From Mustelus asterias (lineage: Eukaryota), in contig NC_135815.1 of assembly GCF_964213995.1 (NCBI RefSeq), positions 75,392,001 through 75,456,000 on the forward strand: a stretch of 64,000 bases of DNA. Direction: 5' to 3'. The translations under genes were made by a program, and so were the position numbers. Every line of letters starts with the position of its first letter. The stretch's first letter is position 1. This document shows, in pieces, positions 2,310-43,008 of this stretch. Under the pieces are notes generated by a model. That model did not search any database. It was given only the letters and a program-made list of their open reading frames with translations, and had not been told where the DNA came from.

Positions 2310-3145
2310 TGCAGGGCCACTCAGCTCCTGACTTCATTACAGCCTTAGCCCAAATATGGACAGATAAGGTGAGGGTGACTGCCCTTGACATCAAGACAGT
2401 ATTTGACCGTGTGTAGCATCAAGGAGCCCTAGCAAAACTGGAGTCAGTGGGAATCAGGGGAAAATTGTCAATTGGTTGGAGTCATACCTGGCACAAAGGA
2501 AGATGGCTGTTTGGCATTCAATCATTTAAATCGCAGGAAATCATTGCAAGATTTCCTAAGGGTAGAATCTGAGGCCCAACCATCACCAGTTGCTTTATCA
2601 ATGTCCTTGGATTAAAGCAAATTACTGCGGATGCTGGAATCTGAAACCAAAACCAGCTTTGACAAAGGGTCATCTGGACTCGCAACGTCAGCTCGTTTCT
2701 CTCCTTTCAGATGCTGCCAGATCTGCTGAGATTTTCAAGCATTTTCTCTTTTGGTTATCCATTACTTTCCCTCCATCATAAGGTCAGGAGTGGGGATGTT
2801 CGTTGATTGCACAATTTTCAGCACCATTCATGAATCCTCAGATACTGAAGCAGTCCATCCCCCAATGCAGCAAGAGCTGGATAAATCCAGACTTTGGCTG
2901 ACAGGTGCAAGCAACATTCTCACCACACAAATGCCAGAAAATGGCCTAACAAGAGAGAATCCAATGATCTCCCCTTGACGACATTCAATTGCACTATAAT
3001 CACTGAATGCCCCATTATCAACATTCTGAGGGTTACTATTAATCAGAAACTGAAGTGAAGCAGCCATATGAATGCTCCGGCTACAAGAGCAGGTCAGACA
3101 CCAGGAATTCTCCTGACTCCCAAAAACCTGTCCACCATCTACAAA
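2310..3145 (+). mobile_element. Degenerate LINE reverse transcriptase fragment (CR1/L2/Crack-group, same family as 27390-30190), interrupted by a PLE-derived insert
   Basis: Frames give VTALDIKTVFDRV*HQGALAKLESVGIRGK. Nucleotide sequence matches the reverse complement of ~27900-28520. Confidence 0.7.
2613..2756. mobile_element. Miniature PLE pseudo-LTR insertion (second PLE family) with 32-nt tail and degenerate hammerhead
   Basis: Tail TAAAGCAAATTACTGCGGATGCTGGAATCTGA, then an 8-nt arm AACCAAAA that is the inverse of the terminal TTTTGGTT. Hammerhead-like core at 2655-2693. Homologous to 9301-9432. Confidence 0.6.
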
Positions 3146-3495
3146 GCATTCTCTGCCCCTTCTGCTGGCCTACCTATGTTCTGTTGCTGTTAATTTGTAT
3201 CATCACTCCAAGTTGTGTATCATCAGCACATTTAAATTTTTTATTCTCTATTCCAATGTCCAAGTTATTGATATAAACGAAAAAAGCAGTAGTCTTAGCA
3301 CTGACAATTGGGGAACACTACTGTTGACCATCCTGCACCATGAAAAATAACCACTTTGCACAACTTGCTGATTCCTGTCCTTAAGCCAATTTTTGATCCA
3401 AGCTGACACCGCCTATTCCATGAGCCACAATTTTATTAATCAACCTTTTATGTGGTACTTTGTCAAATGCTTTCTTAACATCCACCTAGACAACA

Positions 3496-5655
3496 GGGGT
3501 GATTTTTGAGCCCGTACTCTCCTTGCACAAGATCGATGGCACATGCGTAAAATTTGGAGACACCCAGAAAACGCAATTCCCGCCGGCGAGTTTGAGTTCC
3601 GGTCTTCCAGGCTTCCCCTCCAGCAGGTGGCATGAAACACCCCACAGGATTCCATGAACCTCATTTTAATACATTACCATATCATTCATGGGCAACTCTC
3701 TCCAGAATTTCCCCCCCACTCGCTAGATATTCAGTGGGTGCCGGTGTGACATCATGCTGGTGCTATTTACAACAGGTCCACATAAGCATGAACCTGGCGA
3801 CCTCAGCTCCGAAGGGAATTTTGGAGGTGAGCACTCAGGCAGCCATCACCCTCCAGAATGTTCACTGTTCAGGGGGCACCGGAGAGGATCTCCTCTGTGT
3901 CCAGGGCTGGAGGTGTGTCGCTCACGGTGAGTTGGGTGTCAGATGGATTGGAGACACTTAGGGTCCTCTGGGGTGGAGGGCCCTAGGCTATACTCCTGCT
4001 GATTCTTTTCCTTTCAGGTTCCTGAAAGCCCCTGTGCTCCTCCATGGAATGGAGGGGAAGCTGAATTGAGATTCAGAAGCCCTACCATCCTCTGGCGCTG
4101 ATACTTGTGAATTCCCACCAGTGCCTGCACCATGCAGTTGAAGCACTGCACCTTGGTTCTCTCGCCCTTAGATATGGAGATCATGAGCTGAACCATGATG
4201 CTGACATCAGAGTTAATATCCTGTGTCAGGTCTCCACTGTGAACGCCAGCCTCATAGTGTTAACCTTGTTGCACTGAAGTGACGGCACCATCTCCTCAAG
4301 TAGAAGGCAATGGGACTCCTCCAGTTGACTTTGCAGTCCGAGGAGGGATACTGCCAACCCTTCCTGATATTCAGACTCTGCCTTTGTAGCTCCAACAGTT
4401 GTTGAATGACTGGACACAGGGCACATCATTGGCCCGGGGCTCAGAGTCCTTAGCTCCAGCATCCCTCCAAGTGCTGGTTCCCTGGGACATTTCTGCCTCC
4501 GCCTGCTGTAGATCTTCAGCTGTGAGGTGCTCACCCATGAGTGATCCAGAAGCCTGCCTACTTGGTGAACCCACCTAGTTGTGAGTATCTGTGGTGGTGC
4601 CAAGTGCAGGTAACAGCTGTGGCGCCTCTTCTGTGGTGGGTTGAAGAAGTTTCCCTTGGAGCTGTTTATGTCCAGTGGGTCCTGGGGATGTGAGGATTCT
4701 CCAGCCTGCTCAGCCTGCAAGAGAAGGGAGATGGCATTAATGCATTACAGGGGATAAAGGAAGGAATATTGATTACTCACTTGAGACTTGAGAAATGACA
4801 GTGTGTCTTGAGGATTCTCATGTTTGTCTGCTGCCGCCACTTCACCAGCAGCACAGGTACAGTCTTTCTCCACCCCAGCTAGCTCAAGCGCTTTATCCTC
4901 AAAACACATGAGGGATCTAAGCTCAAGGATGACTCCAGCTGGCTGCTCCAGCTTGACTCCAGCTGGCTGTACCTGCTCAGGTACTTGTTGGAGTTGAGTT
5001 TGTTTTGCAATGACACATAGGAGAGTGTAGGTGGGAGTGGTGAGATTGAAAATGGTGATGAGGTGTGGCAGTGGGAGCTGCAGTTTGAAGAGCATAGCAG
5101 CTACTGGGGGGAACATGGTGATTGTGGGAGGGCCTCATTACTGGTTTTGGCAACCCTCAAGGAGGCTGGGTGAGAGATAGCGTTGGAGTTGCAAGGGGAT
5201 CAGAGAGAGACTGGAGGTGGTTCACTTACCCGTGCTGAGCAAAGATTGTTCATCTCCTTCCAATACTACTGCCCCGTCCTCTTCTAGAGTGAGCCAGCAC
5301 TCAAGGGCTGCCACTGCATCCCAGGCGGTGGTGGATCCCACCTCTGTTACACTTCAGTCAGCATTCTGGTGAGGGCTCCCTCTGAAAAACGAGGTGCAGA
5401 CATCTTGTCTACCATCTCCTGGAACAGATCTGGAACAAGTTTTGGGGAAAACTGGAGAGCTGTTTATATGGAGCTCAGTTGTGGTGGGGCGGGCGAATCA
5501 GAGGGAACATGCTGCCAGTGCAGTGTGATTCTCATGGGCGTTAAAATTTTCATTAACGAGGCATAAGATTTGGTCCAAAATCACGTCAGCAGGAATCACT
5601 CCATTTTTTTTGCACTGGAACCAATACTCTGCCATATTTTGGTAAGATTCCACCC
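3496..5655 (-). mobile_element. Non-autonomous PIF/Harbinger element carrying a decayed, spliced Myb/SANT-like gene, inserted in a minus-strand CR1 (~3205-3495 and ~5656-6530)
   Basis: Termini GGGGTGATTTT / AAGATTCCACCC. Minus-strand exon 5403-5230 reads MSAPRFSEGALTRMLTEV*...AWDAVAA... and ends at a GTAAGT donor. A later exon has LELRSLMCFEDKALELAG. CR1 sequence resumes across the insertion. Confidence 0.65.
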
Positions 5656-9300: not shown

Positions 9301-9432
9301 GAACTTTGACGAAGGGTCATCCAGACTCTCAACGCTAGCTCTATTCTCTCTCCACAGATGCTGTCAGACCTGAAATTTTCAAGGATTTTTGAGGTTTTTT
9401 CAGATTCCAACATCTGCAGTAATTTGCTTTTA
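9301..9432 (+). mobile_element. PLE pseudo-LTR 3' end (second family) with degenerate hammerhead and tail
   Basis: GAACT-TTGACGA-A-GGGTC-atcca-GACTC-TCAA-CGCT-AGCTC, ending in TCAGATTCCAACATCTGCAGTAATTTGCTTT, which is the near reverse complement of the 2613 tail. Confidence 0.6.
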
Positions 9433-10870
9433 TTTTATATCAATTAACCCTTGATTATTTGCATATGGTGAGTGGGTTGCAAATTCTAGCGTCCACCCAC
9501 CTACTGTTATGGGGATGAGCTTTGAGGTGGGCGGGAAGGTGGCAGGCACCTATTTTATGATCCCCCCCCCGCCCCCCCCCCCCCCCAAACACAGAAAAGC
9601 TAGCAATATATAGGTGGAAAGTTTGTTCACAGACTATGTCGATTCTCCAGTGGGCGGACAGTGCCACTGCCCATACTGCCCATTACTTGTACGGCCCACA
9701 CATCATTCTCGATAATAATGCCATGCTGACCACCCAGGTAATAGCTTGCATTGCATTGCTGCGCAAACAAATTCTATACTCACCCCCCACCCCACCATCC
9801 ACAAGAGTTTTAAGGTTGCTTTACAACTTCACTTGTGTTAATACAAGTTATTCTCTCTGCATCAACCAGTTTTCTTTGTCCTGGATCAAGAATGGTATTT
9901 GAACTAGATTTCCTGCTATTCATGGCCATTAGACAAAAAATCCACTTCATGGATATCACAACAATTATATATATATATATTATATATATTGGCAATCTCT
10001 CGCAGCCTAACCAGCAGTTTTTAAAGGGACTGCTGAGGGCCACCATGTTAGTATTCTTTCATGAACAAAATGCATTTTCTCTCTTACTGTCTGTAATCAG
10101 TATTTTGCATGGAAAGAGGTGTGTGTGTCTTTTCTTATCCTTTATTCTAATTCAATGCAGAGCAAGCTTTTGAGTTTAAAATAAAGAGGTTGTTTATTCT
10201 CACATTTACCTCGAGTTAATGTGATGTCACACACTTGGTGCCATGCATGTACATACATATGCACACAGACACACTCTCACTGCATTTTTACAGATTATAT
10301 TAATTCTGTCTCATAGACAGTTTCTGGTCTCCCACATAGCAAGCTGGGCTCCCACATTGGTTTCCTGGATGGATGTGATGATTTAAAGTTGAAGTGAGGG
10401 TCTTGTAAAGTCAAGTCTTCACAGCAGATTGTGATGTTTCTTGCAGTCGAAAAAAGATATCTAAAAGGTTGGTTCTCAGGCGGACTTTGAAACTGGAACA
10501 GTTTAAGTACATTGAAACTAGCTACAAGTCATCAAGTAGCCAGAGTCTGGGTTTCAGTCTGGCTGACAACTGATGGTTCTTATGGATCTGCTGGATCCTG
10601 GGGTAATAAAGATGGGAGTCCCTGAAACCAGCTTCAATCACATTGCCACTGGGTCAACACTTATGAGGCCTACCCTGTCACTGATGCAACGGGAAGTTGA
10701 TAGTCACCTTTGTTTTTGATCTTCCCTTTTTTGTCCATGAAACATGGAAACAGGCAGTCTGGAAACTCCTTGTCTTTAGATGTTGGCCCATCCTTACACA
10801 ATGAGACACTGAGATATGTGAATTTCACAAATAGCTGTGAGGTCCCCTCAACTATGTCTACATTTAATTA

Positions 10871-11975
10871 TGATGTGGAGATGCCGGCGTTGGACTGGGG
10901 TAAACACAGTAAGAAGTTTAACAACACCAGGTTAAAGTCCAACAGGTTTATTTGGTAGCAAAAGCCACACAAGCTTTCGGAGCTGCAAGCCCCTTCAGGT
11001 GAGTGGGAATTCTGTTCACAAACAGAGCATATAAAGACACAAACTCAATTTACATGAATAATGGTTGGAATGCGAATACTTACAACTAATCAAGTCTTTA
11101 AGAAACAAAACAATGTGAGTGGAGAGAGCATCAAGACAGGCTAAAAAGATGTGTATTGTCTCCAGACAAGACAGCCAGTGAAACTCAGTGAAACTCTGTG
11201 GGGGTTACAAATAGTGTGCCATGAACCCAATATCCTGGTTGAGGCCGTCCTCGTGTGTGCGGAACTTGGCTATCAGTTTCTGCTCAGCGACTCTGCGCCG
11301 TCGTGTGTCGCGAAGGCCGCCTTGGAGAACGCTTAACCGAATATCAGAGGCCGAATGCCCGTGACCGCTGAAGTGCTCCCCAACAGGAAGAGAACAGTCT
11401 TGCCTGGTGATTGTCGAGCGGTGTTCATTCATCCGTATGCAGACGCTGCGACAATGGATGAATGAACACCGCTCGACAATCACCAGGCAAGACTGTTCTC
11501 TTCCTGTTGGGGAGCACTTCAGCGGTCACGGGCATTCGGCCTCTGATATTCGGGTAAGCGTTCTCCAAGGTGGCCTTCGCGACACACGACGGCGCAGAGT
11601 CGCTGAGCAGAAACTGATAGCCAAGTTCCGCACACACGAGGACGGCCTCAACCGGGATATTGGGTTCATGGCACACTATTTGTAACCCCCACAGAGTTTC
11701 ACTGGCTGTCTTGTCTGGAGACAATACACATCTTTTTAGCATGTCTTGATGCTCTCTCCACTCACATTGTTTTGTTTCTTAAAGACTTGATTAGTTGTAA
11801 GTATTCGCATTCCAACCATTATTCATGTAAATTGAGTTTGTGTCTTTATATGCTCTGTTTGTGAACAGAATTCCCACTCACCTGAAGAAGGGGCTTGCAG
11901 CTCCGAAAGCTTGTGTGGCTTTTGCTACCAAATAAACCTGTTGGACTTTAACCTGGTGTTGTTAAACTTCTTACT
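10871..11975. mobile_element. Penelope-like element, 5'-truncated, with inverted pseudo-LTRs forming a ~1.07-kb near-perfect palindrome
   Basis: 37-nt tail (10871-10907), arms 10908-11434 and 11456-11975, 21-nt spacer, TSD ACATTTAATTA (10860-10870 / 11976-11986). Both arms encode the GIY-YIG C-terminus (MNEHRSTITRQDCSLPVGEHF...EQKLIAKFRTHEDGLN). Confidence 0.93.
11879..11915 (+). ncRNA. Minimal type I hammerhead ribozyme motif in a PLE pseudo-LTR
   Basis: CAC-CTGAAGA-A-GGGGC-ttgca-GCTCC-GAAA-GCTT-GTG. Contains the core boxes CUGANGA and GAAA, a 5-bp stem II, stem I CAC/GTG, a palindromic AAGCTT stem III, and a predicted CUU cleavage triplet. Confidence 0.8.
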
Positions 11976-12147
11976 ACATTTAATTAGGCATTCACCAGAA
12001 ATTTGATACTGTCTGTCGTCCAAATGCCAAAAGTCACATGATTTGCAGCAGGCATCTTATCAGCCTGTTTGTACCCGATTTTAAAAATATTGACAAACTT
12101 CAAAATATGAATTTATATTCACTTACGGGATGTGGGTGTCATTGGTT

Positions 12148-15556: not shown

Positions 15557-17816
15557 CATAGAGTCAGAGAGGTTTACAGCATGGAAACAGGCCCTTCGGC
15601 CCAACTTGTCCATGCCGCCCTTTTTTTTTAAGAAATCCCAAAGCTAATCCCAATTGCCCGCATTTGGCCCATATCCCTCTATACCCATTGTACCCATGTA
15701 ACTATCTAAATGCTTTTTAAAAGACAAAATTGTACCTGCCTCTACTACCACCTCTGGCAGCTTGTTCCAGACACTCTCCACCCTCTGTGAAAAAATTGCC
15801 CCTCTGGACACTTTTGTATCTCTCCCCTCAAACCTATGCCCTCTAGTTTTAGACTCCCCTACCTTTGGGAAAAGATATTGACTATCTAGCTGATCTGTGC
15901 CCCTCATTATTTTATAGACCTCTATAAGATCACCCCTCAGCCTCCTGTGCTCCAGAGAAAAAAGTCCCAGTCTATCCAGCCTCTCCTTATAACTCAATCC
16001 ACCAAGTCCGGGTAGCATCCTAGCAAATCTTTTCTGCACTCTTTCTAGTTTAATAATATCCTTTCTATAATAGGGTGACCAGAATTGCACACAGTATTCC
16101 AAGTGTGGCCTTACCAATGTCTTGTACAACTTTAACAAGACATCCCAACTCCAGTATTCAATGTTCTGACCAATGAAACCAAGCATGCCGAATGCCTTCT
16201 TCACCACTCTGTCCACCTGTGACTCCACTTTCAAGGAGCTATGAATCTGTACTCCTAGATCTCTTTGTTCTGTAACTCTCCCCAACGCCCTACCATTAAC
16301 TGAGTAAGTCCTGCCCTGGTTCAATCTACCAAAATGCATCACCTCGCATTTGTCTAAATTAAACTCCATCTGCCATTCGTCAGCCCACTGGCCCAATTGA
16401 TCAAGATCCCATTGTAATTGGAGATAACTTTCTTTGCTGTCCGCTCTGACACCAATCTTCGTGTCATCTGCAAACTTACTAACCATGCCTCCTATATTCT
16501 CATCCAAATCATTAATATAAATGACAAATAACAGTGGACCCAGCACTGATCCCTAAGGCACACCGCTGGTCACAGGCCTCCAGTTTGAAAAACAATTCTC
16601 TACAACCACCCTCTGGCTTCTGTCACGAAGCTAATTTTGTATCCATTTAGATACCTCGCCCTGGATCCTGTGAGATTTAACCTTATGCAACAACCTACCA
16701 TGCGGTACCTTGTCAAAGGCCTTGCTGAAGTCCATGTAGACAACATCAACTGTACTGCCCTCATCTACCTTCTTGGTTACCCCTTCAAAAAACTCAATCA
16801 AATTTGTGAGACATGATTTTCCACTCACAAAGCCATGCTGACTGTCCCTAATCAGTCCTTGCATCTATAAATGCCTGCAGATCCTGTCTCTCAAAATACC
16901 TTCCAACAATTTACCCACCACAGATGTGAGGCTCACTGGCCTGTAGTTCCCAGGCTTTTCCCTGCAGCCCTTTTTAAACAAAGGCACAACATTTGCCACT
17001 CACCAATCTTCAGGCACCTCACCCGTGACTATCGATGATTCAAATATCTCTGCTAGGGGACTCGCAATTTCCTCCCTAGCCTCCCATAATGTCCTGGGAT
17101 ACACTTCATCAGGTCCCAGGGATTTATCTACCTTGATGCGCATTAAGGCTTCCAGCACCTCCTTCTCTGTAATATGTACACTCCTCAAGACATCACTATT
17201 TAGTTCCCCAAGTTCCCTAACATCCATGCTTTTCTCAACAGTAAATACTGATGAGAAATATTCATTTAGGATCTCACCCATCTCTTGTGGATCCGCACAT
17301 AGATGACCTTGTTGATCCTTAAGAGGCCCTACTCTCTCCCTTGTTACTCTTTTGCCCTTTATGTATTTGTAGAAGCTCTTTGGATTCTCCTTTGCCTTAT
17401 CTGCCAAAACAATCTCATGTCTCCTTTTGCCCCCTGATTTCTCTCTTAACTCTACTCCTACACCCCCTATACTCTTCAAGAGATTCACTTGATCCCAGCT
17501 GCCTATGCACGTCATGTGCCTCTTTCTTCTTCTTGACCAGGACCTCAATATCCCGAGTCATCCAGGGTTCCCGACTTCTGCCAGCCTTGCCCTTCACTCT
17601 AAGAGGAATGTGTTTACCCTGAACCCTGGTTAACACACTTTTGAAAGCGTGCCACTTACCAGACATCCCTTTGCCTTCCCACAGACTCCCCCAATTAACT
17701 ATTGAAAGTTTCTGCCTGATACCATCAAATTTGGCCTTGCCCCAATTTAGAATTTTAACTTTTGGGCCAGACCTATCATTCTCCATAGCTATCTTAAAAC
17801 CAATAGAATTATGGTC
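15557..17816 (-). mobile_element. CR1 LINE ORF2, 3' part (outer element of a nested pair)
   Basis: ORFs 15644-16546, 16631-16864 and 17000-17786 contain SQHGFVSGKSCLTNL, DFSKAFDKVPH, KFADDTK and LVRPHLEYCVQFWSP. The 3' end carries the CR1 terminal motif and a CTCTATG-type repeat. Confidence 0.95.
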
Positions 17817-20800
17817 CCAGGCCGTGGAGAGGTCTGGGAAGGTTTTTTTTCTTTAAAAGTTACTTACCTTAGAGGATCGACCTCATTGTTCCACCGGAGC
17901 AAGCAGAGAGGGAGCGATTCATGTCAGGAGTGCTGAGGGTAAGAGATTGATTTTTTTTTAACCTTACTTTTTAGCGGAGTTTTTTTTTCAGTTAAACAGG
18001 AAACCAGAAGTAGGCCGCTGAGAGGCCTGGAAAGGTTTTTTGCCCAATAAATTTGAACGGGGAGGAAACCCGAGACTCTACACGTGTAGAGCCTCCCACC
18101 CTCCACCCTTCTCTAACCTAAAAAAAAGACTCGAGTGAGAGCAGGTAAGCTTTTTTTTTCTCTCTTTCGTTTCTTGGTAAAGGAAATTAGCAGGGATGTC
18201 AGTGCAGGCGGTGCAACGTTCCTCCTGCGGGATGTTTGAGGTGAGGGATACCAGTGTCCCGGCTGAGTACACCTGCAGGAAGTGCACCCAATTCCAGCTC
18301 CTTGAAGACCGTGTTAGGGATCTGGAGCTGGAACTGGATAAACTCAGGATCATTCGGGAGGCAGAGGCAGCTATAGATAGAAGCTACAGGGAGGTAGCTA
18401 CTCCTAGAAATGCTGATACGTGGGTGACGGCTAGAGGGGGTAAGAAGCAGTCAGAGCAGCGATCCCCTGGATCTCCTGTTTCTCTGTATAACAGGTATTC
18501 TGTTTTGGATACTGTTGGGGGGGGGGGGGAGGCAGGGGGGAACTTAACAGGGGTAAGCCATGGGGTACAGGTCTCTGGCACAGAGTCTGTCCTTGTTGCT
18601 CAGAAGGGAAGGGGGGGAGGAGTAGAGCATTAGTTATTGGGGACTCCATAGTTAGGGGGATAGATAGGAGATTCTGTGGGAACGAGAGGGACTCGCGGCT
18701 GGTGTGTTGCCTCCCAGGTGCCAGGGTCCATGATGTCTCGGATCGTGTTTTCGGGATCCTTAAGGGGGAGGGGGACCAGCCCCAAGTCGTGGTTCACATA
18801 GGCACCCAAGACATAGGTAGGAAAAGGGATGGGGATGTAAGGCAGAAATTCAGGGAGTTAGGGTGGAAGCTTAGGGCTAGAACAAACAGAGTTGTTATCT
18901 CTGGTTTGTTACCCGTGCCACGTGATAGTGAGGAGAGGAATAGGGAGAGAGAGCAATTGAACACGTGGCTACAGGGATGGTGCAGGAGGGAGGGATTCAG
19001 ATACCTGGACAATTGGGGCTCATTCTGGGGTAGGTGGGACCTCTACAAACGGGATGGTCTACACCTGAACCCGAGGGGTACCAATATCCTGGGGGGGAAA
19101 TTTGCTAATGCTCTTCGGGAGGGTTTAAACTAATTCAGCAGGAGGATGGGAACCTGAATTGTAGCTCCAGTGTACAGGAGGTTGAGAGTAGTGAGGTCAT
19201 GGATAAGGTTTCAACGTCGCAGGAGTGTACTGGCAGGCAGGAAGGTGGTTTGAAGTGTGTATACTTCAACGCCAGGAGCATCCGGAATAAGGTAGGTGAA
19301 CTTGCAGCATGGTTTGGTACCTGGGACTTCGATGTTGTGGCCATCTCGGAGACATGGATAGAGCAGGGACAGGAATGGTTGTTGCAGGTTCCGGGGTTTA
19401 GATGTTTCAGTAAGAGCAGGGAAGGTGGTAAAAGAGGTGGAGGTGTGGTATTGTTAGTCAAGGACAGTATTACGGTGGCAGAAAGGATGTTTGATGAGGA
19501 CTCGTCTATTGAAGTAGTATGGGCTGAGGTTCGAAACAGGAAAGGAGAGGTCACCCTGTTGGGAGTTTTCTACAGGCCTCCGAAAAGTTCCAGAGATGTA
19601 GAGGAAAGGATTGCAAAGATGATTCTGGATAGGAGTGAAAGTAACAGGGTAGTTGTTATGGGGGACTTCAACTTTACAAATATTGACTGGAAAAGCTATA
19701 GTTCGAGTACTTTAGATGGGTCAGTTTTTGTCCAATGTGTGCAGGAGGGTTTCCTGACACAGTATGTAGATAGGCCAAGAGGCGAGGCCACATTGGATTT
19801 GGTACTGGGTAATGAACCAGACCAGGTGTTAGATTTGGAGGTAGGTGAGCACTTTGGTGATAGTGACCACAATTCGGTTACGTTTACTTTAGCGATGGAA
19901 AGAGATAGGTATATACCGAAGGGCAAGAGTTATTGCTGGGGGAAAGGAAATTATGATGCGATTAGGTGAGATTTAGGATGCATAGGTTGGGGAAGGAAAT
20001 TGCAGGGGATGGGCACAATAGATAAGCTGCAGAGCTGGGCTGAGAGGTAGCAAATGGAGTTTAATGCGGAAAAGTGTGAGGTGATTCACTTTGGACGGAG
20101 TAACAGGAATATAGAGTACTGGGCTAATGGTAAGATACTTGGTAGTGTGGATGAACAGAGAGATCTCGGTGTCCATGTGCATAGATCCCTGACAGTGGCA
20201 CCCAGGTTGATAGGGTTGTTAAGAAGGCGTACCTCTTTATTGGTGGAGGGATTGAGTTTCGGAGCCATGAGGTCATGTTGCAGCTGTACAAAACTCTGGT
20301 GCGGCCGCACTTGGAGTATTGCGTACAGTTCTGGTCGCCGCATTATAGGAAGGATGTGGAAGCATTGGAAAGGGTGCAGAGGAGATTTACCAGGATGTTG
20401 CCTGGTATGGTGGGAAGGTCTTCTGAGGAAAGGCTGAGGGACTTGAGGTTGTTTTCGTTAGAGAGAAGGTTAAAAGGTGACTTAATAGAGGCATACAAGA
20501 TGATCAGAGGATTAGATAGGGTGGATAGTGAGAGACTTTTTTCCTCGAATGGTGATAGCTCGCACGAGGGGACGTAGCTTTAAATTGAGGGGTGATAGAT
20601 ATAGGACAGATGTCAGAGGTAGGTTCTTTACTCAGAGTAGTAAGGGCGTGGAATGCCCTGCCTGCAGCAGTAGTGGGCTTGCCAACATTAAGGGCATTTA
20701 AATGGTCATTGGATAAACATATGGATGATATTGGAATAGTGTAGGTTAGTTGGGCTTTTGATTGGTTTCACTGGTCGGCGCAACATTGAGGGCCGAAGGG

Positions 20801-23665: not shown

Positions 23666-23925
23666 AAATTAGTTTCACGATCATCCTCAGCTTTTCAATT
23701 TCAGCTTTCATTTTAATTTTACCATCTGCCATGGTGGGATTTGAACCCAGATCCCTGGAGCATTTCATTGGGTCTCTAGATTACTAGTCCAATAACAATA
23801 CCACTATGCCACCACCTCCCTGAGTTCTCTTGTTCGAGATGTCATTGCCTGGTACTTATGCGGCATGGATGTTACTTGCCACTTGTTAGCCCAACCCTGG
23901 ATATTGCCCTGGTATGCTGTATTTG

Positions 23926-24073
23926 TGATGTGGAGATGCCGGCGTTGGACTGGGGTAAGCACAGTAAGAAGTCTCTCAACACCAGGTTAAAGTCCAACAG
24001 GTCCGAAAGCTTATGGTATTTGCTACCAAATAAACCTGTTGGACTTTAACCTGGTGTTGTGAGACTTCTTACT
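23926..24073. mobile_element. 148-bp miniature PLE hairpin insertion
   Basis: Same 37-nt tail as 10871 (one mismatch), 40-nt inverted arms (23963-24002 / 24034-24073, one mismatch), 12-bp TSD ATGCTGTATTTG (23914-23925 / 24074-24085). Confidence 0.92.
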
Positions 24074-24359
24074 ATGCTGTATTTGGACATGGACTGCTTC
24101 AGTATCTGAGGAGACATAAATGGTGTTGAACATTGTGTAATCATCACTGAACATTGCCACCTCTGACCTTATGATGGAGGGAAAGTCATTGTCCATCCAT
24201 GCATGCCAACTGTCTTTATATTGACAGGGAACTTTACAGAATTTGTGAGGTAGATTTTCAATTTGCTATCCAGGCTGTGAAACTGAAATCAATGGGAATA
24301 CAAAATCAAGGAGTTTATATAACAAGCGAATGACATTTCAAATGCATCCCATTTACTCC

Positions 24360-25045: not shown

Positions 25046-25509
25046 TGACCATTGTTCACATTAATTTTATAAAATCATTAATATAAATCATCTTCTATGG
25101 GAAGGTGCTGTGCAAGGGGATTAAAACTCTGCGATATAAGAGGGTATGAATTCCTAATTTCATGGAAATAAGAATATTGATTTGATTTATTATTGTCACA
25201 TGTATTAACATACAGTGAAAAGTATTGTTCCTTGCGTGCTATGCAGACAAAACATACCGTTCATAGAGAAGGAGATGAGAGAATGCAGAATGTAGTGTTA
25301 CAGTCATAGCTAGGGTGTAGAGAAAGATCAACTTAATGCAAGGTAAGTCCATTCAAAAGTCTGACAGCAGCAGGGAAGAAGCTGTTCTTGAGTCGGTTGG
25401 GTCGTGACCTCAGACTTCTGTAACGCCGGCATCTCCACATCAGTGTTAATGTTATCCAGTGGGATAAGAATGAGACCAGAGGGAGCAGCTGCGGGGTAGG
25501 GGCTGACAG

Positions 25510-26580
25510 CCTGTGTATATGGAGGGCTTGTCCAGAGGAATGGCTTCTTTAATGTGTTTAGGATGGAAGCTGGAGAAGTGGAGCATCGTGAGGTTATCCG
25601 TGGGCTTGCGGTAAAGTGAAGTGCTGAGGTGACCGTCCTTGATGGAGATGCGTGTGTCCAAGAATGCAACCGATTCTGGAGAGTAGTCCATGGTGGGTCT
25701 GATGGTGGCATGGAACTTGTTGATGTCATCATATAGTTGTTTCAATGATTGTTCGCCATGAGTCCAAAGGAAGAAAATGTCATCGATGTGTCTAGTGCAT
25801 ATCATCGGTTGAAGGGCCTGTGCGGTGAAGAGACCTTGTTCGAACCTGTGCATAAAGATGTTGGCATATTGAGGTGCGAATTTGGTCTCCATGGCTGTTC
25901 TGTGTGTCTGGATGAAGAACTGGTTGTTGAAGGTGAAGACATTGTGGTCCAGGATGAAGCGGCTGAGTTGTAGAATTGCATCTGGAGATTGGCAGTTGTC
26001 GGCGTTGAGTACTGAGGCAGTTGCAGCAATGCCGTAGCCGTGGGGGATGCTGGTGTAGAGTGTTGAGACATCCATTGTGACGAGGAGTGCTCCTGGTTCA
26101 ACTGCTCCATGTGTGCTGAGTTTCTGTAGGAAGTCCGTAGTGTCACAACAGAAGCTGGAGGTTCTTTGTACAATGGGTTTCAAGATGCCCTCGACGTAGC
26201 CGGAGAGGTTCTCGCACAGGGTCCCATTGCCTGACATGTATGACCCAAGCACAATGCAACGCCATCTGTGCTCTCAAGACCAACCGCAACATTATCATCA
26301 AACCAGCCGACAAAGGAGGGGCCACTGTCATACTGAACAGAACGGTTTACTGCAAAGAAGTGTACCGACAACTGAACAACCAGGAACACTACAGATGGTT
26401 ACCCGCAGATCCGACCAAAGAACACACTCGTCAACTCAACAGACTGATCAAGACCTTTGACCCAGACCTTCAGAGCACCCTCCTTGCTCTCATCCCACGT
26501 TGGAGATTTCTACTGCCTCCCGAAGATACACAAGGCCAACACACCGGGCCGTCCCATCGTATCAGGCAATGGGACCCTGT
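25510..26580. mobile_element. PLE reverse transcriptase fragment with a 5' inversion
   Basis: Minus strand 26234-25510 has VTMDVSTLYTSIPH, TAMETKFAPQYANIFM, RHIDDIF and LYRKPTD. Plus strand 26240-26580 has IIIKPADKGGATVILN and FYCLPKIHKANTPGRPIVSGNGT. Confidence 0.9.
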
Positions 26581-30190: not shown

Positions 30191-30503
30191 ACAACTGAGT
30201 GGCTTGCTAGGCCATTTCAGAGGGCAGTTGAGAGTCAACCAATTGCTGTGGCTCTGGAGTCACATGTAGGCCAGACCAGGTAAGGACAGCAGATTTCCTT
30301 CCCGAAAGGTCATTAATGAACCAGATAGGACAATCGACAATGGTTTCATGATCATCAGTAGACTCTTAATTCCAGATATCTTTTTTTACTGAATTCAAAT
30401 TCCACCATCTGCCATTTCAGGATTCGAACCTGGAACCCCAGAGCATTAGCTGAGTTTCTGGATTAATAGCCTAACGATAATACCACTAGGCCATCGCCTC
30501 CCC
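30190..30503 (-). mobile_element. tRNA-derived SINE, same family as 54940-55280
   Basis: Minus strand starts GGGAGGCGATGGCCTAGTGGTATTATCG and has B box GGTTCGAATCC. Confidence 0.8.
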
Positions 30504-30509: not shown

Positions 30510-32505
30510 GGGAGTAATGTAAAAAGGAAAAGATTTGTGAAGACAAAGTCCCTCACAGTCTGAAACAGGATAATTTATAAGAGAGAACATAGAAACATAG
30601 AAACCCTACAGTGCAGAAGGAGGCCATTCGGCCCATCGAGTCTGCACCGACCACAATCCCACCCAGGCCCTACCCCCACATATTTTACCCGCTAATCCCT
30701 CTAACCTACGCATCCCAGGACTCTAAGGGACATTTTTTTAACCTGGCCAATCAACCTAACCCGCACATCTTTGGACGGTGATTCCCTGAATTCCCGCTAA
30801 TTCCCTGAACATGGGGAGCTAGTGTAAATCCCGTCAGACTGATGTACTCCTGGCAGGGTGGGAGATTCAATCGGGACCTGAAAGTTCGCAATAATGAACT
30901 GCTAAGCATATTTAAAATACATTGAAAAAAGATTCAAATGACTTACCTGCCTTCCTGCCAGTTTCCAAAGGAAAAGGCAGAGCAATTAAAAATTACTTTA
31001 GTTCTGTCTTCATGGAGGAAGACACAAATAACTTCCCAGAAATGTTAGGGAAGGAGAAATTTAAGGAAATAATGGCCACGATTCTCCCAAAAGTGCTGAA
31101 TTGGCGGGAAAACTGTTCTAAATCCTGACTGTTTTGTCAGTTCAGCTTCTCACCTGAATCTCCGCACTCTGTGCATTGCAGAGGTCCCAGTCGTGAATAT
31201 CATTAAAAACCCAAGGGCGGGGCCTATTCACGCCAGAGTATGACAGTTCTGGAACTCTGCGCATGCATAGTGGCTCCGATCTGTCAGATTCCCCATTTGC
31301 TGGCCAGCTGAATCGCTGGCCAGCCCGGGACCCCGCAGTGCTGCCCCGCCAGCTCCCCAAGCAGTGGCGATTTTCCCCCCTAGCCCATCCCAATCACTGC
31401 GTTCCCTCCAGCCCCAACTGATCCTGTCTGCAGAGTGGCAGCAGGACCCCCACCTATCACCCCTAGGCCCTGCCCACAATAGGCCCCGCTCCCTTGGCAT
31501 AGCCCGATGCCTGGTGGGCAGTGCCAAGGGACACAGGCTGGCACTGCCAGGGTACCCATGCCCGGGGAGCACCCCCCCCCCCCCCCACTGCCCGACCCTC
31601 TGGGGGGCCCTGATTGCCCTCCTTCATTCCAGCGGGGTCTCCCGCTAATTCCCTGAACGTGGGGAGCTAGTGTAAACCCCGTCAGACTGATGTACTCCTG
31701 GCAGGGTGGGAGATTCAATCGGGACCTGAAAGTTCGCAATAATGAACTGCTAAGCATATTTAAAATACATTGAAAAAAGATTCAAATGACTTACCTGCCT
31801 TCCTGCCAGTTTCCAGCGTGATCTGATCGGCGACTGTTCACCGGCTCTGGGAGATGCGCATGCGTTCCCAGTGCAAATCCTGATACAAGGCTGGCGACGC
31901 GCATCTCCCACTGCGACCCGCCAGAAAGGTTGTGGGTCGCGATGAGAGAATCGCAGCCAATATTACCAAAAAAATTGCAGGAGAAATTAATGGGACTGAA
32001 AGCTAGGGCTTGATCTACATCCCAAGGTACTAAAGGAGGTGGCTATGGAAATAGTGGATGCATTGGTTGTCATCTTCCAAAATTCCATAGATTCTGAAAC
32101 CGTCCCAACAGATTGGAAGGTGGCAAATGTAACCCTGCTATTTAAAAAATAGAGGGAGAAAACCGGGAACTACAGACCCGTTAGCCTAACATCCATTGTA
32201 GGGAAAATGCTCGAGTCTATTACAAGGATGTGATAACAGGACACTTAGAAAGTATCAACGAGATTAGACAAAGTCATATGGATTTATGAAAGGGAAATGA
32301 TGTTTGACAAATCTACTGTAGCTTTTTGAGAACATAACTAGCAGAATAGATGAGGGTGAACCAGTGGATGTGGTATCTTTAGATTTTCAGGAAGTTTTTG
32401 GTAACATCCCACACAAGAGATTAACGTGCAAAATTTAAAGCACATGGAATTGGGGGTAATGTATTGGTATTGATTGGGAATTGGTAAGTAGATAGGAAAC
32501 AGAGT
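30510..32505 (+). mobile_element. Degenerate CR1 ORF2 fragment hosting two younger insertions
   Basis: NYFSSVFMEED, DWKVANVTLLFKK, GNYRPVSLTSIVGKMLES and GFMKGK motifs. Confidence 0.8.
31074..31958. mobile_element. PIF/Harbinger-type MITE, 885 bp
   Basis: TIRs GGCCACGATTCTC / GAGAATCGCAGCC, 3-bp TSD AAT (31071-31073 / 31959-31961), GC-rich interior. A related copy lies in the opposite orientation at ~56789-57715. Confidence 0.8.
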
Positions 32506-34352: not shown

Positions 34353-36039
34353 CTCAGGCTTCATTTTGATTTGATTTATTATTGTCATATGTATTAGTAT
34401 ACAGTGAAAAATATTGTTTTTGTGCACTATACAGACAAAGCATACCAATCATAGAATACATGGGGAGAAGGAAAGGAGAGAGTGCAGGATATAGTATTAC
34501 AGTCATAGCTAGGGTGTAAAGAAAGATCAATACGGGGTAGGTCCATTCAAAAGTCTGATGGCAGCAGGGAAGAAGCTGTTCTTGAGTTGGTTGACACGTG
34601 TAATAATGCATTATTCGAGTTTAAAAGAGTTAGAATAAAGTTTGGAAACATAGAACGAGAGTAAAAGATTAGAATTCGAGGGCACAGCTTGCAAGAAGTT
34701 GCCACACTCCGGCGCCATCTTGAAAGGTGGTGGGCCATTCATCTCCACTTGCTTCATATTTCATCCTTCTGACTCTCCAATAACTCTCCCCAAAGTCGGT
34801 GTCTCTGATCTGATTTTGAAATAAAAGAGATGACATATCAGGGTTGGGGATGAAGTAGTGTCAGTTGAGAATCTGAATATACAGAAGATTCCACTCCGAA
34901 AGTGGTGGGGTGATTATTTGAGTGACCAGCCTCTACTTGCACGACGGCCCTTTGTATAATGCAGAAGAACTGTTTGCGCTTTCACCATTTTGCATTCCAT
35001 CTTGAAGAAATAATGATCGATTGCTGGCATTTCAGATAACGTTGCTATTATCTATGATGAATATTTCCAAGCCTTACCACCATTTTGTTGCCACCTTGCC
35101 TCCAGCTTTGGTATTTCCCATAGTCTCGAATCTGCCTGCATATGATTTACATGGCCCCAGCCCATGTGAACATGGCTTTCAGTGCTGGTGCTACTTCCCC
35201 AGTTGCATTTCTCCGATGTTGCTAATAAGCTGAAGTTTTCTCAAGTGAGAAGGCATAACTTTAGAAGCATGTGAGTAGTATGGACACATCATATGAGCAG
35301 ATGAATTCCATGATTACGAGAAAGATATTCCCTATAAATGAAATGTCCTTGAAGATGAGCAGAAACCATTATGTAAATTGTAAACAGTTGTTTTGTTTAA
35401 AGATGGTACAGCTGGAAATCAGGGAGTTAGCCCTTCTTCCTTCTGACTGCCCCCATCCGCAGGCTACTCAAGACATCTGAGCCTCACTACCGTTGAAAAA
35501 TGGATGGCTGCCACTTGCCTTTTAAAAGCTGCACCAGCAACCAACTCCCACCACTGGCAACTTAATGAAGTGTTGTATTATTGCTCCAAACAAACTGCAA
35601 ATGAAGGTGCCTAGAAGCAAAGGTGAGCAATTTAGTGACAGATTGTTATCCGCTGGTGTTCATCACATACTCTCCCTAATCTGCCAACAGAAGGAGAATC
35701 TGGCCCGTGGTGACCAGCGTTTGAGCGATGAATATGTCTTGGAGAAATGAACTTTGTCCAGCTGGAAAAGAGAAATCTCTGAGTAAAATAAAATAGTTAA
35801 GAGAATGTAAAATGTAAACTTGGTGCATTACTACCAATGGAATAGAGCAGGATGAGAAAACATAGATTTGAACTCTTAAAGGAATGTCAGGAAATTCTTT
35901 ACACAAAGAATAATCAATGGACAAAATAGATTTCCAGACAGTGCAGGAGGAAAACTTGGAATCTAATTATCTCTGAGGGATCATCGTCTTCTCTAGTCTA
36001 TTAAAAGACACAGCTGCAAAATTTCCACCAGTGTTCACC

Positions 36040-36975
36040 AGAAACATAGGAAGCATGGTTAGTAAGTTTACAGATGACACCAAGATTTGTGGCATAGTGG
36101 ACAGTGAAGAAGGCTATCTTGGATTGCAATGGGATCTTGATCAATTGGGCCAGTGGGATGACGAGTGGCAGATGGAGTTTAATTTAGATAAATGTGAGGT
36201 GATGCATTTTGGTAGATTGAACCAGGGCAGGACTTATTCAGTTAATGGTAGGGTGCTGGGGAGAGTTACAGAACAAAGAGACCTAGGGGTACAGGTTCAT
36301 AGCTCCTTGAAAGTGGAGTCACAGGTGGACAGAGTGGTGAAGAAGGCATTCAGCATGCTTGGTTTCATTGGTCAGAACATTGAATACAGAAGTTGGGATG
36401 TCTTGTTGAAGTTGTACAAGACATTGGTAAGGCCACACTTGGAATACTGTGTACAGCTCTGGTCACCCTATTATAGAAAGGATATTACTAAACTAGAAAG
36501 AGCGCAGAAAAGATTTACTAGGATGCTACCGGGACTTGATGGTTTGAGTTATAAGGAGAGGCTGGATAGACTGGGACTCTTTTCTCTGGAGCGTAGAAGG
36601 CTGAGGGGTGATCTTAGAGGTCTATAAAATAATGAGGGGGATAGATCAGCTAGAAAGTCAATATCTTTTCCCAAAAGTAGGAGAGTCTAAAACTAGCGGG
36701 CATAGGTTAAGGTAAGAGGGGAGAGATACAAAAGTGTCCACAGGGGCAATTTTTTCACAGAGGGTGTTGAGTGTCAGGAACAAGCTGCTAGAGGAGGGTA
36801 CAATTTTGTCTTTTTAAAAAGCGTTTGGACAGTTACATGGGTATGATGGGTATAGAGGGCTATGGGCCAAATGCGGGCAATTGGGACTAGCTTAGGGGTT
36901 TAAAAAAAAAAGGGCGGCTTGGACAAGTTGGGCTGAAGGGCCTGTTTCCATGCTGTAAACGTCTATGACTCTATA
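36040..36975 (+). mobile_element. 5'-truncated CR1 LINE, same subfamily as 15557-16520
   Basis: ORF 36031-36627 is nearly identical in protein to 15644-16546, and the 3' end CTGTAAACGTCTATGACTCTAT is nearly the same. Confidence 0.93.
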
Positions 36976-40300: not shown

Positions 40301-41577
40301 TATCGTGATATTATTGACCAATAATTTTTAGTGAAGATCTATACAAGTTGGTACACAGGGTTTGCAGATGTGTTGGGTGGTGTACAAGATGTCAAAGTTG
40401 GCAAAGCAAATTCATTGGAAAAACCCAGCATTGGAAGGAGCAGACTATAGTGACATTCATTACTATCTATAATTCCAAGCACAAGTTGTTTTCAGTTTTT
40501 TTTCCCTACTAAGTGCAGTTAAAGAACATTAAAATCAAAAATGTATTACACTATTTCATAGTAGAGCAAAGTTACTTGGCTTTTGTGAGGTTACAAGCAC
40601 ATAAGCTTAATTTGGAGTTGGCTTTCTAGATCATTGAGTTTAGAAAACTAGGACGTAATACTTGGGGAATCTGTGTATCCTTTTGATTTCAAAACTCTGA
40701 CTATAAAACATCAAACTGAGATTGAATTGGGTCAAAGGTTATTATTTCTCGATATTTTGTGGTTTAGTAAATCCATTTTATCAATCATCCCTTCAGTACT
40801 GATTATATATTTGGGTAGATGTTGTGCTGCCCCTTTTTTAAGAGTCTAGTCACGTGTTTAGTTTGCGACATCATCGGCTGCTTCGTGAGCTGTTAGTCAG
40901 TCGACTCCAAGCCTTCATACAGCCTCCAACAACTTCTCAACCCATGTGTTGCAACTCCATATTCTTTTATCCTTACAAGTGCAACATAGACTCTAAGTCT
41001 ATCAGTATTGTATATGTTGTAAAGTCATAAATGGAGGGACCATCTCAAAGGCAGAATCCAGGGAATTGTAGCTATAATTAAATAAATACTAGCCTGACTG
41101 AGCTATTTTGGTTTGCAACAAATAGGAATTAAATATTCATTTAGATTTAATGATCTTATTGGTTGGCAATCTTAAAATATGCATGTTTACTTAAGTTACT
41201 GTACTTGATGTAGTTCAGGAAACCAGACAAACTTCAAATACTATCAACAGTCTTATTTAGATTCAAAATAATCAGTACCCTTCACTGAGTTAGTAGGTTT
41301 TTCTGTATCTATTTAGCAGCACTTTCTGTATCAATTTGAGTTGGCAGTTTTGCTGGTATAGTTAGCCAAATTATTTTATAATTAACGTTATGGTTTACAT
41401 TAACTAAATACTTCAAGTACTTTGGTCAAGTTCACTGCACAATTTGTACTATTTAGAGATTAAATTAGTTCCATTTACCGACTGGCACAACATATGAAAT
41501 CTCTCATGAAGCTCTGGAATGGTGAGATTGAGTCCCTTCCTTACTGAAATCAGAGACATTGCATAGAATTTTAACTC

Positions 41578-43008
41578 AGTAAGAGTTTTAACAACACCAG
41601 GTTAAAGTCCAACAGGTTTATTTGGCAGCAAATACCATAAGCTTTTGGAGCGCTGCTCCTTCGTCAGATGGAGTGGAAATGTGCTCTCAAACAGTGCACA
41701 GAGACACAAAATCAAGTTACAGAATACTGATTAGAATGTGAATCCCTACAACCAGCCAGGTCTTAAAGATACAGACAATGTGGGTGGAGGGAGCATTAAG
41801 CACAGGTTAAAGAGATGTGTATTGTCTCCAGACAGGACAGCCTGCAAGTCCAGGAGGCAAGCTGTGGGGGTTACTGATAATGTGACATAAATCCAACATC
41901 CTGGTTTAGGCCGTCCTCATGTGTGTGGAACTTGGCTATCAGTTTCTGCTCAGCGACTCTGCGCAGTCGTGTGTCGTGAAGGAGAGCGCTTACCTGAAGA
42001 TCCGAGGCTGAATGCCCGTGACTGCTGAAGTGCTCCTCCACAGGAAGAGAACAGTCTTGCCTGGTGATTGTCGAGCGGTGTTCATTCATCCGTTGTCGTA
42101 GCGTCTGCATGGTTTCCCCAATGTACCATGCCTCGGGGCATCCTTTCCTGCAGCGTATCAGGTAGACAACGTTGGCCGAGTTGCAAGAGTAGGTACCGTG
42201 TACCTGGTATATGGTGTTCTCACGTGAGATGATGGCATCCGTGTCGATGATCCGGCACATCTTGCAGAGGTTGCTGTGGCAGGGTTGTGTGGTGTCGTGG
42301 TCACTGTTCTCCTGAAGGCTGGGTCGTTTGCTGCGGACAATGGTCTGTTTGAGGTTGCGCGGTTGTTTGAAGGCAAGAAGTGGGGATGGCCTTGGCGAGA
42401 TGTTCGTCTTCATCAATGACACGTTGAAGGCTCTGGAAGAGATGCCATAGCTTCTCCGCTCCAGGAAGTACTGTACTGGACTGTCCCGTGTTTGTCTTCT
42501 GAGGAGGTTGGTGCGGTTTTTCGCTGTGGCGCGTCGGAACTGTTGATCGATGAGTCGAGCGCCATATCCTGTTCTTATGAGGGCATCTTTCAGCGTCTGG
42601 AGGTGTCTGTTGTGATCCTCCTCATCCGAGCAGATCCTGTGTATTCGGAGGGCTTGTCCGTAGGAAATGGCTTCTTTAACGTGTTTAGGGTGGAAGCTGG
42701 AGAAGTGGAGCATCATGAGGTTATCCGTGGGCAGAGACTCACTAACTGTCCTGGCTGGAGACAATACACATCTCTTTAACGTGTGCTTAACCCTCTCTCC
42801 ACTCACATTGTCTGTACCTTCAAGACTTAATTACCTGTAAAGACTCGCATTCCAACCATTATTTTGTAAATTGAGTTTGTCTTTATATGCCCTGTTTGTG
42901 AACACAACTCCCACTCACCTGATGAAGGAGCAGCACTCTGAAAGCTTGTGGCTTGTGCTACCAAATAAACCTGTTGGACTTTAACCTGGTGTTGTGAGAC
43001 TTCTTACT
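41578..43008 (-). mobile_element. Penelope-like element: RT C-terminus, GIY-YIG endonuclease and pseudo-LTR, with an inverted pseudo-LTR at the truncated 5' end
   Basis: ORF 41871-42806 has SSFHPKHVKEAISYGQALRIHRICS and NVVYLIRCRKGCPEAWYIGETMQTLRQRMNEHR. Termini AGTAAGAG...AACACCAGGTTAAAGTCCAACAGG and its inverse. Confidence 0.92.
42916..42950 (+). ncRNA. Minimal type I hammerhead ribozyme motif in a PLE pseudo-LTR
   Basis: CAC-CTGATGA-A-GGAG-cagca-CTCT-GAAA-GCTT-GTG, with intact core boxes. Confidence 0.78.

Follow-up and report, generated by a model that had tools for sequence, protein, structure and literature searches.

Minimal hammerhead ribozymes are known from the pLTRs of metazoan Penelope-like elements (PLEs), where they are of type I, have a loopless helix III with a palindromic 15.2-16.2 segment, carry one extra base between positions 9 and 10.1 together with a G10.1-C11.1 pair, and are scattered singly or as pairs on opposite strands (Cervera and De la Pena 2014, PMC4209133). 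In fishes they have been reported for Neptune, Poseidon and Xena elements (PMC4209133). These hammerheads barely cut in vitro, and in vitro insertion proceeds without need for them (PMC4209133, PMC8557442, PMC11167929). For the Anolis carolinensis Poseidon PLE, it has been shown that priming is internal, that both strands are nicked and extended, and that protein assists cleavage; no RNA reads were found at the hammerhead cut (Frangieh et al. 2024, PMC11167929). The wider question is what PLE hammerheads do.

The window analysed is a 64,000-nt stretch of the Mustelus asterias genome (GCF_964213995.1, NC_135815.1:75,392,001-75,456,000, forward strand; all positions are window-based). A first-pass annotation of this DNA had described seven related motifs, and we find all seven with the positions and letters it gave. 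A descriptor comprising the core, a helix II of at least 4 pairs, a palindromic 15.2-16.2 segment, UH and a helix I of at least 2 pairs identifies exactly two intact motifs in the window, both among the seven copies, with cores from 11882 and 42919, in agreement with the annotation. Applied beyond the window, as the annotation had suggested, the same descriptor finds 51 intact motifs in 1.2 Mb (regions sampled at fixed steps along contigs) and none when the sequence of these regions is reversed. This corresponds to an estimated ~156,000 intact motifs genome-wide, compared with ~9,000 reported for Xenopus tropicalis using different descriptors (PMC4209133). An Rfam scan of the window matched no hammerhead family at E values up to 1; identification therefore depends on the descriptor together with family evidence, for which copies were gathered from the animal's own genome by sequence patterns. 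Two miRNA-like Rfam matches in the window are the palindromes.

As the annotation proposed, the motif lies in a PLE pLTR and its features match the published minimal hammerheads (PMC4209133). The type I order and the CUGANGA / GAAA / UH core are fixed across 12 family-1 clusters except in one insertion; an extra A between 9 and 10.1 and the G10.1-C11.1 pair are present in 12/12 of these clusters and likewise in family 2. Helix III has no loop, and its palindromic 15.2-16.2 segment reads AGCU in family 1 and ACGU in family 2. Helix II spans 5-6 bp, as against 7-8 bp in Schistosoma (PMC4209133). The motif class is already in print (PMC4209133), and the shark families are further members of it; the parts of that text and supplement that were searched hold no shark entry, and the remainder, as well as Lunse, Weinberg and Breaker, may list shark motifs. 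Assignment to non-LTR retrozymes, which consist of tandem non-coding units each with a hammerhead, was rejected: neighbours within 4 kb are mainly head-to-head (111, versus 23 on the same strand), and no arrays occur among 341 copies.

The claim of at least two PLE families also holds, in that both carry a C-terminal GIY-YIG-type endonuclease. A 915-aa open frame in one family-1 insertion matches RVT_1 (E 4e-10), and an ORF remnant in the window (41874..42731, minus strand) retains the RT thumb, a CxxxxCxxC linker and the GIY-YIG endonuclease (PF01541, E 8.7e-4, which falls short of the curated cut-off). Family 2 is represented by endonuclease fragments only, which share 27% identity (E 8e-7) with family 1; no RT was found for it, and neither of its two endonuclease fragments has a Pfam match. 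Inspection by eye shows that both families have a CX2-5CxxC linker joining RT and endonuclease, a feature that Neptune and Nematis elements share (PMC8557442) and that sets the shark element apart from Anolis Poseidon (PMC11167929). On these sequence features both families appear to be Neptune-type PLEs, the linker being common to Neptune and Nematis. Among named proteins, the nearest are uncharacterised ones of sharks and turtles. The annotation had credited one family with two pLTR variants; variants exist, but two is too low a number, since we count 12 flank-defined clusters of at least two copies.

An alignment in which the core was no better conserved than its flanks had been put forward as grounds for rejecting the ribozyme. 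Across the 12 family-1 clusters, defined on flank alone, 1/13 core columns is variable compared with 41/67 flank columns (p 4.6e-4). The sole variable core column, A6G, is found in 2/70 copies that are the two arms of one insertion, and a core-dead subfamily was accordingly rejected. Positions that are free in a hammerhead do vary, including N7 (C84/A65/T39/G1) and H17 (T112/A74/C28/G0), with position 17 never G in 214 copies. Family-1 stems are paired in 95.4% of cells, and 3/12 pairs have changed on both sides. Their covariation (0.172 vs 0.137) is reached by 0/500 shuffles, a control blind to relatedness; 28/500 reach the count of two-sided pairs taken by itself, and the changes amount to three events only. 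When partners are slid, pairing falls to 31-56%. The annotation's view that stems differ between copies while pairing is kept is thus right for source lineages, where covariation is real, and not for genomic copies. Inside subfamilies, core and flank decay at the same pace (8/919 vs 19/2340), which shows that copies decay neutrally after insertion.

This decay is apparent in the window, where some of the proposed variants are products of CpG decay. The branch a copy of family 1 at 11879..11915 (plus strand) is an intact minimal hammerhead, with C3 at 11882, the extra A at 11889, helix II GGGGC/GCUCC, GAAA at 11905-11908 and a predicted cut at 11912/11913. Its mirror copy (10968..11001, minus strand) has a 3-nt core deletion and is predicted to be dead. 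The branch c copy at 42916..42950 (plus strand; predicted cut 42947/42948, putative start A 42913) keeps its core, and its short stem II, GGAG/CUCU, reflects two CpG-site changes relative to its subfamily rather than the covariation suggested for it; the 42905-42960 segment proposed as a cleavage substrate is a decayed copy. At 41635..41671 (minus strand, branch b) the stem I letters CCAU/AUGG and the AAAA are borne out, but the AAAA is a CpG-site change relative to the subfamily, with loss of G12, and not covariation; this copy is predicted to be dead. A 3′ half-motif of branch b remains at 24002-24016. The second family, reported at 2655-2693 and 9301-9341, is confirmed; its U3-A8 core had been overlooked. 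Neither of its window copies has an intact core. The plus-strand copy at 2655..2693, of family 2a, begins at helix I and has the core UUGACAA (U3 2659, A8 2664), C in place of A13 (2683) and a predicted cut at 2689/2690. The plus-strand copy at 9301..9433, 2b-like and with its own 3′ end, has a U3-G8 core, TCAA in place of GAAA and C at U16.1. Most of the seven motifs are thus decayed copies of a small self-cutting RNA, already known, that two very abundant PLE families carry, and the window copies are very probably inert.

Families 1 and 2 share core and geometry but have different stems. Among the matches listed, the U3-A8 core occurs in 74/76 family-2a copies and in 0/24 2b copies, of which 15/24 are C3-G8. 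A minority of 2b copies among those listed (3/24) are U3-G8, and may be intermediate between C3-G8 and U3-A8. The Cercyon PLEs of Schistosoma mansoni also show the two-sided 3-8 swap to U3-A8 in large numbers (PMC4209133); here, by contrast, the host is a vertebrate, a C3-G8 sister branch is present in the same genome, and there is the U3-G8 minority.

The family-1 element comprises, in order, a TATA-like box, a start A, the hammerhead, AATAAA, the pLTR end, a 36-nt tail, ATG, the RT-endonuclease ORF and a pLTR. In the window, the TATA-like box begins at 11847 and the putative transcription start is A 11876 (11847..11876, plus strand), placed from sister copies: many copies begin at one A, preceded by an extra G, that lies 29 nt downstream of the TATA-like box, with the core following 6 nt later. 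A G precedes this A in 69/100 matches listed (both pattern sets), compared with 25/100 two bases further on; excluding arm-templated G and full-length point mutants, the extra G counts are 41/57 and 24/41 (p 1e-11, 5e-5). In full-length L1 and SVA, an extra 5′ G has been read as reverse-transcribed cap (PMC4859970), a reading we apply here to PLEs. Taken as a cap signature, the extra G implies that the ribozyme likely opens a 130-nt 5′ UTR, and the element's capped RNA likely has the hammerhead as its first 45 nt. Cap-site evidence from genomic PLE copies is new here: cap-site mapping of this kind was not found in the examined text of PMC11167929, nor an untemplated 5′ G read as cap for PLEs in the literature searched. 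Rotifer pLTRs have a putative TATA box and initiator (PMC8557442, PMC3846280). The extra G is absent at the start of family 2a (G22, C28, A29, T21). Branch b shows no start hot spot at that A (363 matches; ~60 of the 100 listed are full-length point mutants), and 7/63 of its core-containing copies nevertheless start nearby, so that its loss of the TATA box serves only by half as the clean control we had considered.

The ATG lies ~95 nt past the predicted cut, and at 2 loci the ORF begins directly after the tail. Anolis Poseidon also has its hammerhead at the pLTR-ORF junction, but there the ORF starts inside the hammerhead (PMC11167929). Downstream of the motif, AATAAA (11931-11936) is followed by a possible poly(A) site near 11950 and then a GT-rich stretch (11931..11951, plus strand). 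AATAAA is present in 316/348 copies anchored downstream of it, and A-runs follow 11949/11951 in 4 contigs. Conservation is good at the downstream pLTR end too.

The window motifs had been called dispersed; seven are indeed present, but the five family-1 copies fall in only three head-to-head structures. Structure A (10871..11975) has arms that are 97-99% complementary, one bearing the 11879-11915 motif and the other its mirror at 10968-11001, with a tail on the left arm only and a 13-bp duplication (10858-10870 and 11974-11986). Structure C (23926..24073) is a short head-to-head insertion that holds the 3′ half-motif, again with a tail on the left arm and a 13-bp duplication (23913-23925 and 24073-24085). 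Structure B (41573..43010) joins a 5′-truncated PLE on the minus strand to an inverted pLTR of another branch, with arms 80% alike; neither tail nor target duplication was seen in it, an exception to the family rule. It prompted the idea that each insertion takes two RNAs of different branches, which is not the rule, as arms are of the same type in 71/76 typed pairs. Across the genome, 58/104 sampled copies lie in head-to-head pairs, the tail is on exactly one arm in 101/111 such pairs, and direct repeats of 11-18 bp flank 91/101 one-tail pairs (allowing one mismatch, and with no shuffled control). The 2 Mb examined contain no recognisable direct pLTR-ORF-pLTR copy. Complex EN+ PLE insertions likewise have an inverted 5′-truncated copy, a one-sided 30-40-bp tail and a target duplication (PMC8557442, PMC3846280), the duplication being 8-10 bp there and ~13 bp here, where more than half of sampled copies are paired. 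Two internal RT start sites defining the tail, nicking and extension of both target strands, and uncut RNA as the main template, all putative here, are features also of Anolis Poseidon (PMC11167929).

The genomic trace of cleavage is weak in these tests. In branch b, breakpoints do not peak at the cut (-4:12, -3:5, -2:10, -1/0:24 over two positions, +1:17, +2:3, +3:12, +4:15; among the 100 matches listed from which these were counted, deletions account for 2/100), and their density near the cut is ~1.6-2x that further upstream. A few branch a copies begin exactly at the cut. No poly(A)-to-cut junction occurs in the 2 Mb examined, one A-run match being something else. Dimer cleavage, which the annotation invoked, is a literature model; in folding models, the active dimer is predicted to lie 8-14 kcal/mol higher than the cofold minimum and to gain nothing over two monomers in 9/9 copies, and single copies fold no better than shuffles.

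We think it probable that the motifs are fossils of selected minimal hammerheads from two Neptune-type PLE families, likely forming the first 45 nt of capped RNA and likely cutting only slowly, aided by a second copy and by the protein that the element encodes. Reverse transcription would start within the RNA, at the pLTR end and at the tail end, and would proceed on both strands of a 13-bp staggered cut, which would yield one-tailed head-to-head insertions. The many short motif-only copies would arise where priming falls in the 5′ UTR and synthesis continues as far as the cap, with uncut RNA as the template of most insertions. At somewhat less than even chances, occasional cutting at both motifs of one transcript releases end-matched unit RNAs, and 5′-to-3′ passage of the RT (or circularisation) then yields promoter-bearing copies, which would be the only ones to found new lineages. 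Such a role would explain why the core is conserved even though in vitro insertion needs no cleavage.

We also weighed other roles for the motif. It could act as a brake, a cut 35 nt after the cap decapping the mRNA and limiting RT production, so that braked lineages outlast others; the motif does sit between the putative cap site and the ATG, and protein-assisted cleavage (PMC11167929) would supply negative feedback. We consider this unlikely, given that hundreds of thousands of copies show little restraint and that the branch a copies starting exactly at the cut suggest copying of cut RNA rather than its destruction alone. We hold equally low expectations of a fold kept for RNA pairing, protein binding or translation start and never cutting in vivo, a use in keeping with the lack of a sharp cut-site peak in branch b, the weak dimer energies, the other functions left open in PMC4209133 and the lack of RNA reads at the cut in PMC11167929. 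A non-catalytic fold sits less easily with the two-sided 3-8 swap in family 2a or the exclusion of G from position 17, both rules of the catalytic fold, and the related Anolis motif cuts with protein (PMC11167929).

Another reading would be that conservation is incidental, through overlap with promoter or RT-binding signals or as a passenger, with paired changes arising by chance. The core begins 6 nt after the putative start, where promoter elements lie, the downstream pLTR end shares its conservation, independent changes are few, and PLE clades without canonical hammerheads thrive (PMC8557442). This reading is already weakened, and we give it very little credence: N7, loop II and H17 vary within the stretch while core bases stay, the two families agree in core and geometry but not in stems, and pairing drops with slid partners. 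Scarcely credible, too, is action of the window copies themselves as ribozymes on host RNA. Two of their cores are intact, but core sites decay neutrally within subfamilies, no other intact core lies on the same strand within 31 kb to serve as partner, and in a read-through transcript of structure A the motif would base-pair with the mirror arm.

For the selected hammerhead that we favour, a more speculative extension, which we rate as doubtful, likens the pLTR to a retroviral LTR whose repeated region contains a ribozyme: a TATA box would be followed by the cap site, then by the hammerhead, the poly(A) signal and internal RT starts, and the genome would keep every RNA end (capped, cut and poly(A)-to-cut). 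If true, this would provide a genomic record of in vivo PLE hammerhead cleavage and of the 5′-to-3′ template jump that rebuilds full elements. The genome holds ~150,000 dated outcomes and an ORF that is nearly whole; its C3-G8 and U3-A8 sister branches form a natural pair, the putative cap site is six bases before the core, and exact coordinates are now given for testing the start, the cut ends and protein-assisted cleavage. In family 2a, the start hot spot follows an acceptor-like pyrimidine tract. The family-2 copy at the left of the window belongs to a short insertion (2613..2751) in which an inverted tail end is joined to the motif, within an older LINE fragment.

All seven minimal type I hammerhead motifs assigned to the window by the first-pass annotation are present as described, and the two cores it called intact also satisfied our descriptor. 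We sampled 120 regions of 10 kb at regular intervals along 15 contigs of the genome (C1-C15); the descriptor found 51 intact motifs there and none in a reversed-sequence control of the same regions, which extrapolates to ~156,000 in 3.68 Gb (95% interval 116,000-206,000). Exact matches number 142,431 for a 33-base anchor lying 3′ of the family-1 motif and 24,245 for a family-2 anchor, with 0 for each in reversed controls. An Rfam search of the window returned no hammerhead match. Another repeat carries CUGAUGA, GAAAC and GUC in hammerhead-like order (55073-55100, +; 30331-30358, -), but just 4 bases occupy the helix II place, and several of 16 further copies in 1.2 Mb lack the core.

The family-1 carrier is the pseudo-LTR (pLTR) of a Penelope-like element (PLE). 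An ORF remnant in the window gives a GIY-YIG match under the curated cut-off, and an insertion at locus L103 comprises a 13-bp duplication, an inverted arm with tail (the 36-nt stretch between pLTR end and ATG), a 915-aa open frame matching RVT_1 (E 4e-10) and a pLTR. The closest named proteins are uncharacterised shark proteins (81-94% identity), and at two family-1 loci an ATG directly follows the tail. Family 2 is preceded in 3 loci by endonuclease fragments with 27% identity to family 1; no family-2 RT was seen. Both families have a cysteine linker, described in PMC8557442 as a feature of Neptune and Nematis. A third family-1 remnant in the window (25422-26420), without a hammerhead, joins a tail end (25422-25442, +) to an RT fragment (25452 onward, -) and adjoins another repeat at 25176-25406. 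Contigs of three other organisms (runs X1, X2 and X4) share the pLTR of 11780-11975 with motifs like those of family-1 branches c and d; the differences listed fall mostly at N7, helix and loop II, H17 and CpG sites.

To compare lineages, we clustered copies on flank alone; 128 of 341 extended far enough upstream, of which 107 formed 12 clusters and 21 singletons were excluded. Across the clusters, 1 of 13 core columns varies versus 41 of 67 flank columns (p 4.6e-4). The sole variable core column reflects both arms of one insertion (2 of 70). There, A6G and a loop change are private to L100:4800-4885 (+) and its mirror near L100:2950-3035 (-); the change would reflect either two rounds of copying from a core-mutant RNA or conversion of one arm by its partner. 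Variation is free at N7 and H17, and H17 is G in 0 of 214. Within clusters of at least four copies, by contrast, non-CpG differences are as frequent in the core (8/919) as in the flank (19/2340; p 0.83), with 15/223 at CpG core sites. Because core and flank differ at like rates, copies decay neutrally after insertion; selection operates on source lineages. CpG decay accounts for the unusual stems of the 42916 copy and for AAAA in the copy at 41635. Pairing was assessed in 37 copies picked blind to the motif, 31 of them distinct; 34 came from unselected regions and 3 from the window. In these, 95.4% of cells are paired and two-sided changes occur at helix I pair 1 and helix II pairs 3 and 4, a total of three also reached in 28 of 500 shuffles, which disregard relatedness.

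Head-to-head pairs hold 58 of 104 copies in unselected regions. Over all loci, the tail is on a single arm in 101 of 111 such pairs, a direct repeat of 11-18 bp (up to one mismatch; no shuffled control) accompanies 91 of these 101, and both arms belong to one type in 71 of the 76 pairs that could be typed. The window insertions at 10871-11975 and 23926-24073 follow this pattern. That at 41573-43010 is the exception, one of 5 mixed pairs among the 76: its arms represent two different branches (80%) and it has neither tail nor duplication, through either two insertions joined by deletion or a two-template event. The head-to-head, one-tailed pattern is already published (PMC8557442, PMC3846280), and the one-tailed palindromes probably arise by internal twin priming, with reverse transcription started at two internal positions once both strands are nicked (cf. 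PMC11167929). At L106, L098, L202 and L085, family-1 ends lie immediately within family-2 pLTRs, a short way beyond the hammerhead; one family may preferentially target the other.

Where the RNA begins can be approached through 5′ truncation. Of 268 family-1 copies, 167 reach no further than 150 nt upstream of the anchor, and among them 29 have their first base 33-36 nt 5′ of the predicted cut; starts between -39 and -31 number 3/61 in branch a, 7/63 in b, 7/46 in c and 17/31 in d. The A located six bases 5′ of C3 is the first base of 2,236 copies from branches c/d and of 966 from branch a. A G precedes this A in 69 of the 100 matches listed in each search, versus 25 of 100 listed for a comparison start two bases later. 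After removal by eye of copies whose G is supplied by the opposite arm (28 and 45) and of full-length point mutants (15 and 14), G remains in 41/57 (c/d) and 24/41 (a), versus 28% expected. An extra 5′ G is a recognised cap trace in L1 and SVA (PMC4859970); our literature search found no paper on such traces in PLE copies. Since the start A lies 29 nt downstream of a TATA-like box, the motif is likely to stand at the head of a 5′ UTR of ~130 nt, and the A itself is probably the cap site. Counting against this reading, branch b yields just 363 matches at that A, mainly point mutants. Family 2a shows starts within 2-6 nt of the core, 30 nt below TATAAA, in 31 of the 46 copies that contain the core (a set that includes mirror arms and loci chosen for an intact motif), but here the lack of a G excess and a preceding acceptor-like tract again speak against a cap site. 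D. virilis Penelope has an intron at the corresponding place (PMC4209133; PMC2377424).

Genomic traces of cleavage are weak. For branch b together with its register-mates, 1,537 matches have breakpoints from -4 to +4 of the cut, in a flat profile with no peak. Their density, ~156 per position versus 98 at -17 to -4, is a 1.6-fold raw excess (~2-fold after rough correction) that pausing at the helix I base would also produce. In branch a, three arms of two insertions, a small number, start exactly at the cut, with one start each at -4, -5 (a deletion), -6, -7 and -10; another 10 rows at 0 were discarded because the filter had picked up branch-c copies. Contigs of run X17 gave 7 listed junctions with intervening letters; in 4 of them, sequence ending at 11949 or 11951, 13-15 nt below AATAAA, is followed by 9-10 A-rich letters and then continues precisely at 11913. 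These four may represent one to four events, strand not given, and the genomic loci examined contained no such junction. We lean slightly towards cleavage of some template RNAs.

In 9 of 9 copies the active dimer is predicted to be less stable than the cofold minimum, by 8-14 kcal/mol, in line with the protein need reported in PMC11167929. Cleavage is probably slow and assisted; a rival reading of the same fold is that it is non-catalytic. We propose that cleavage would serve rare products that regain a promoter, matched RNA ends permitting either circle formation or a template jump. The circle was suggested in PMC4209133; our addition is that selection would see only promoter-regaining products. 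Were the start A capped, the ribozyme could instead be a decapping brake, while the contrast between core and flank columns might, on another account, be incidental conservation.

The motif class, the U3-A8 swap and inverted structures are already known, the swap from Schistosoma in the one report we found on it (PMC4209133). We found no paper on shark PLE hammerheads, although PMC5785218 and supplementary lists, outside our search, may include such motifs; a 2026 retrozyme preprint (10.64898/2026.07.22.740005) covers one chondrichthyan. With positions 3, 7 and 8 free, the family-2 pattern has 4,186 matches. Among the 100 listed, 76 have the background of branch 2a (74 U3-A8, 2 C3-A8) and 24 that of its sister 2b (15 C3-G8, 5 C3-A8, 3 U3-G8, 1 G3-G8). 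The window copy at 2655 is a 2a motif that has lost A13, and in the family-2 copy at 9301 several bases of the core are gone. In family 2, two pyrimidine tracts that end in AG and resemble splice acceptors (2694-2712 and family-2 loci) sit just 5′ of the hammerhead and just 3′ of it, the latter followed by ATG.

Among other repeats in the window are LINE pieces, comprising an ORF1 of SGNH/GDSL esterase type, then an apurinic-type endonuclease (18492-19969, +), and two RT fragments 92% alike (15644-16552, -; 35977-36627, +). The open frame at 58922-59623 (+) has no Pfam match; by eye we take it to resemble a Gypsy-type pol fragment. A 176-bp direct repeat, 99% identical, occurs at 30792-30967 and 31640-31815, 848 bp apart.
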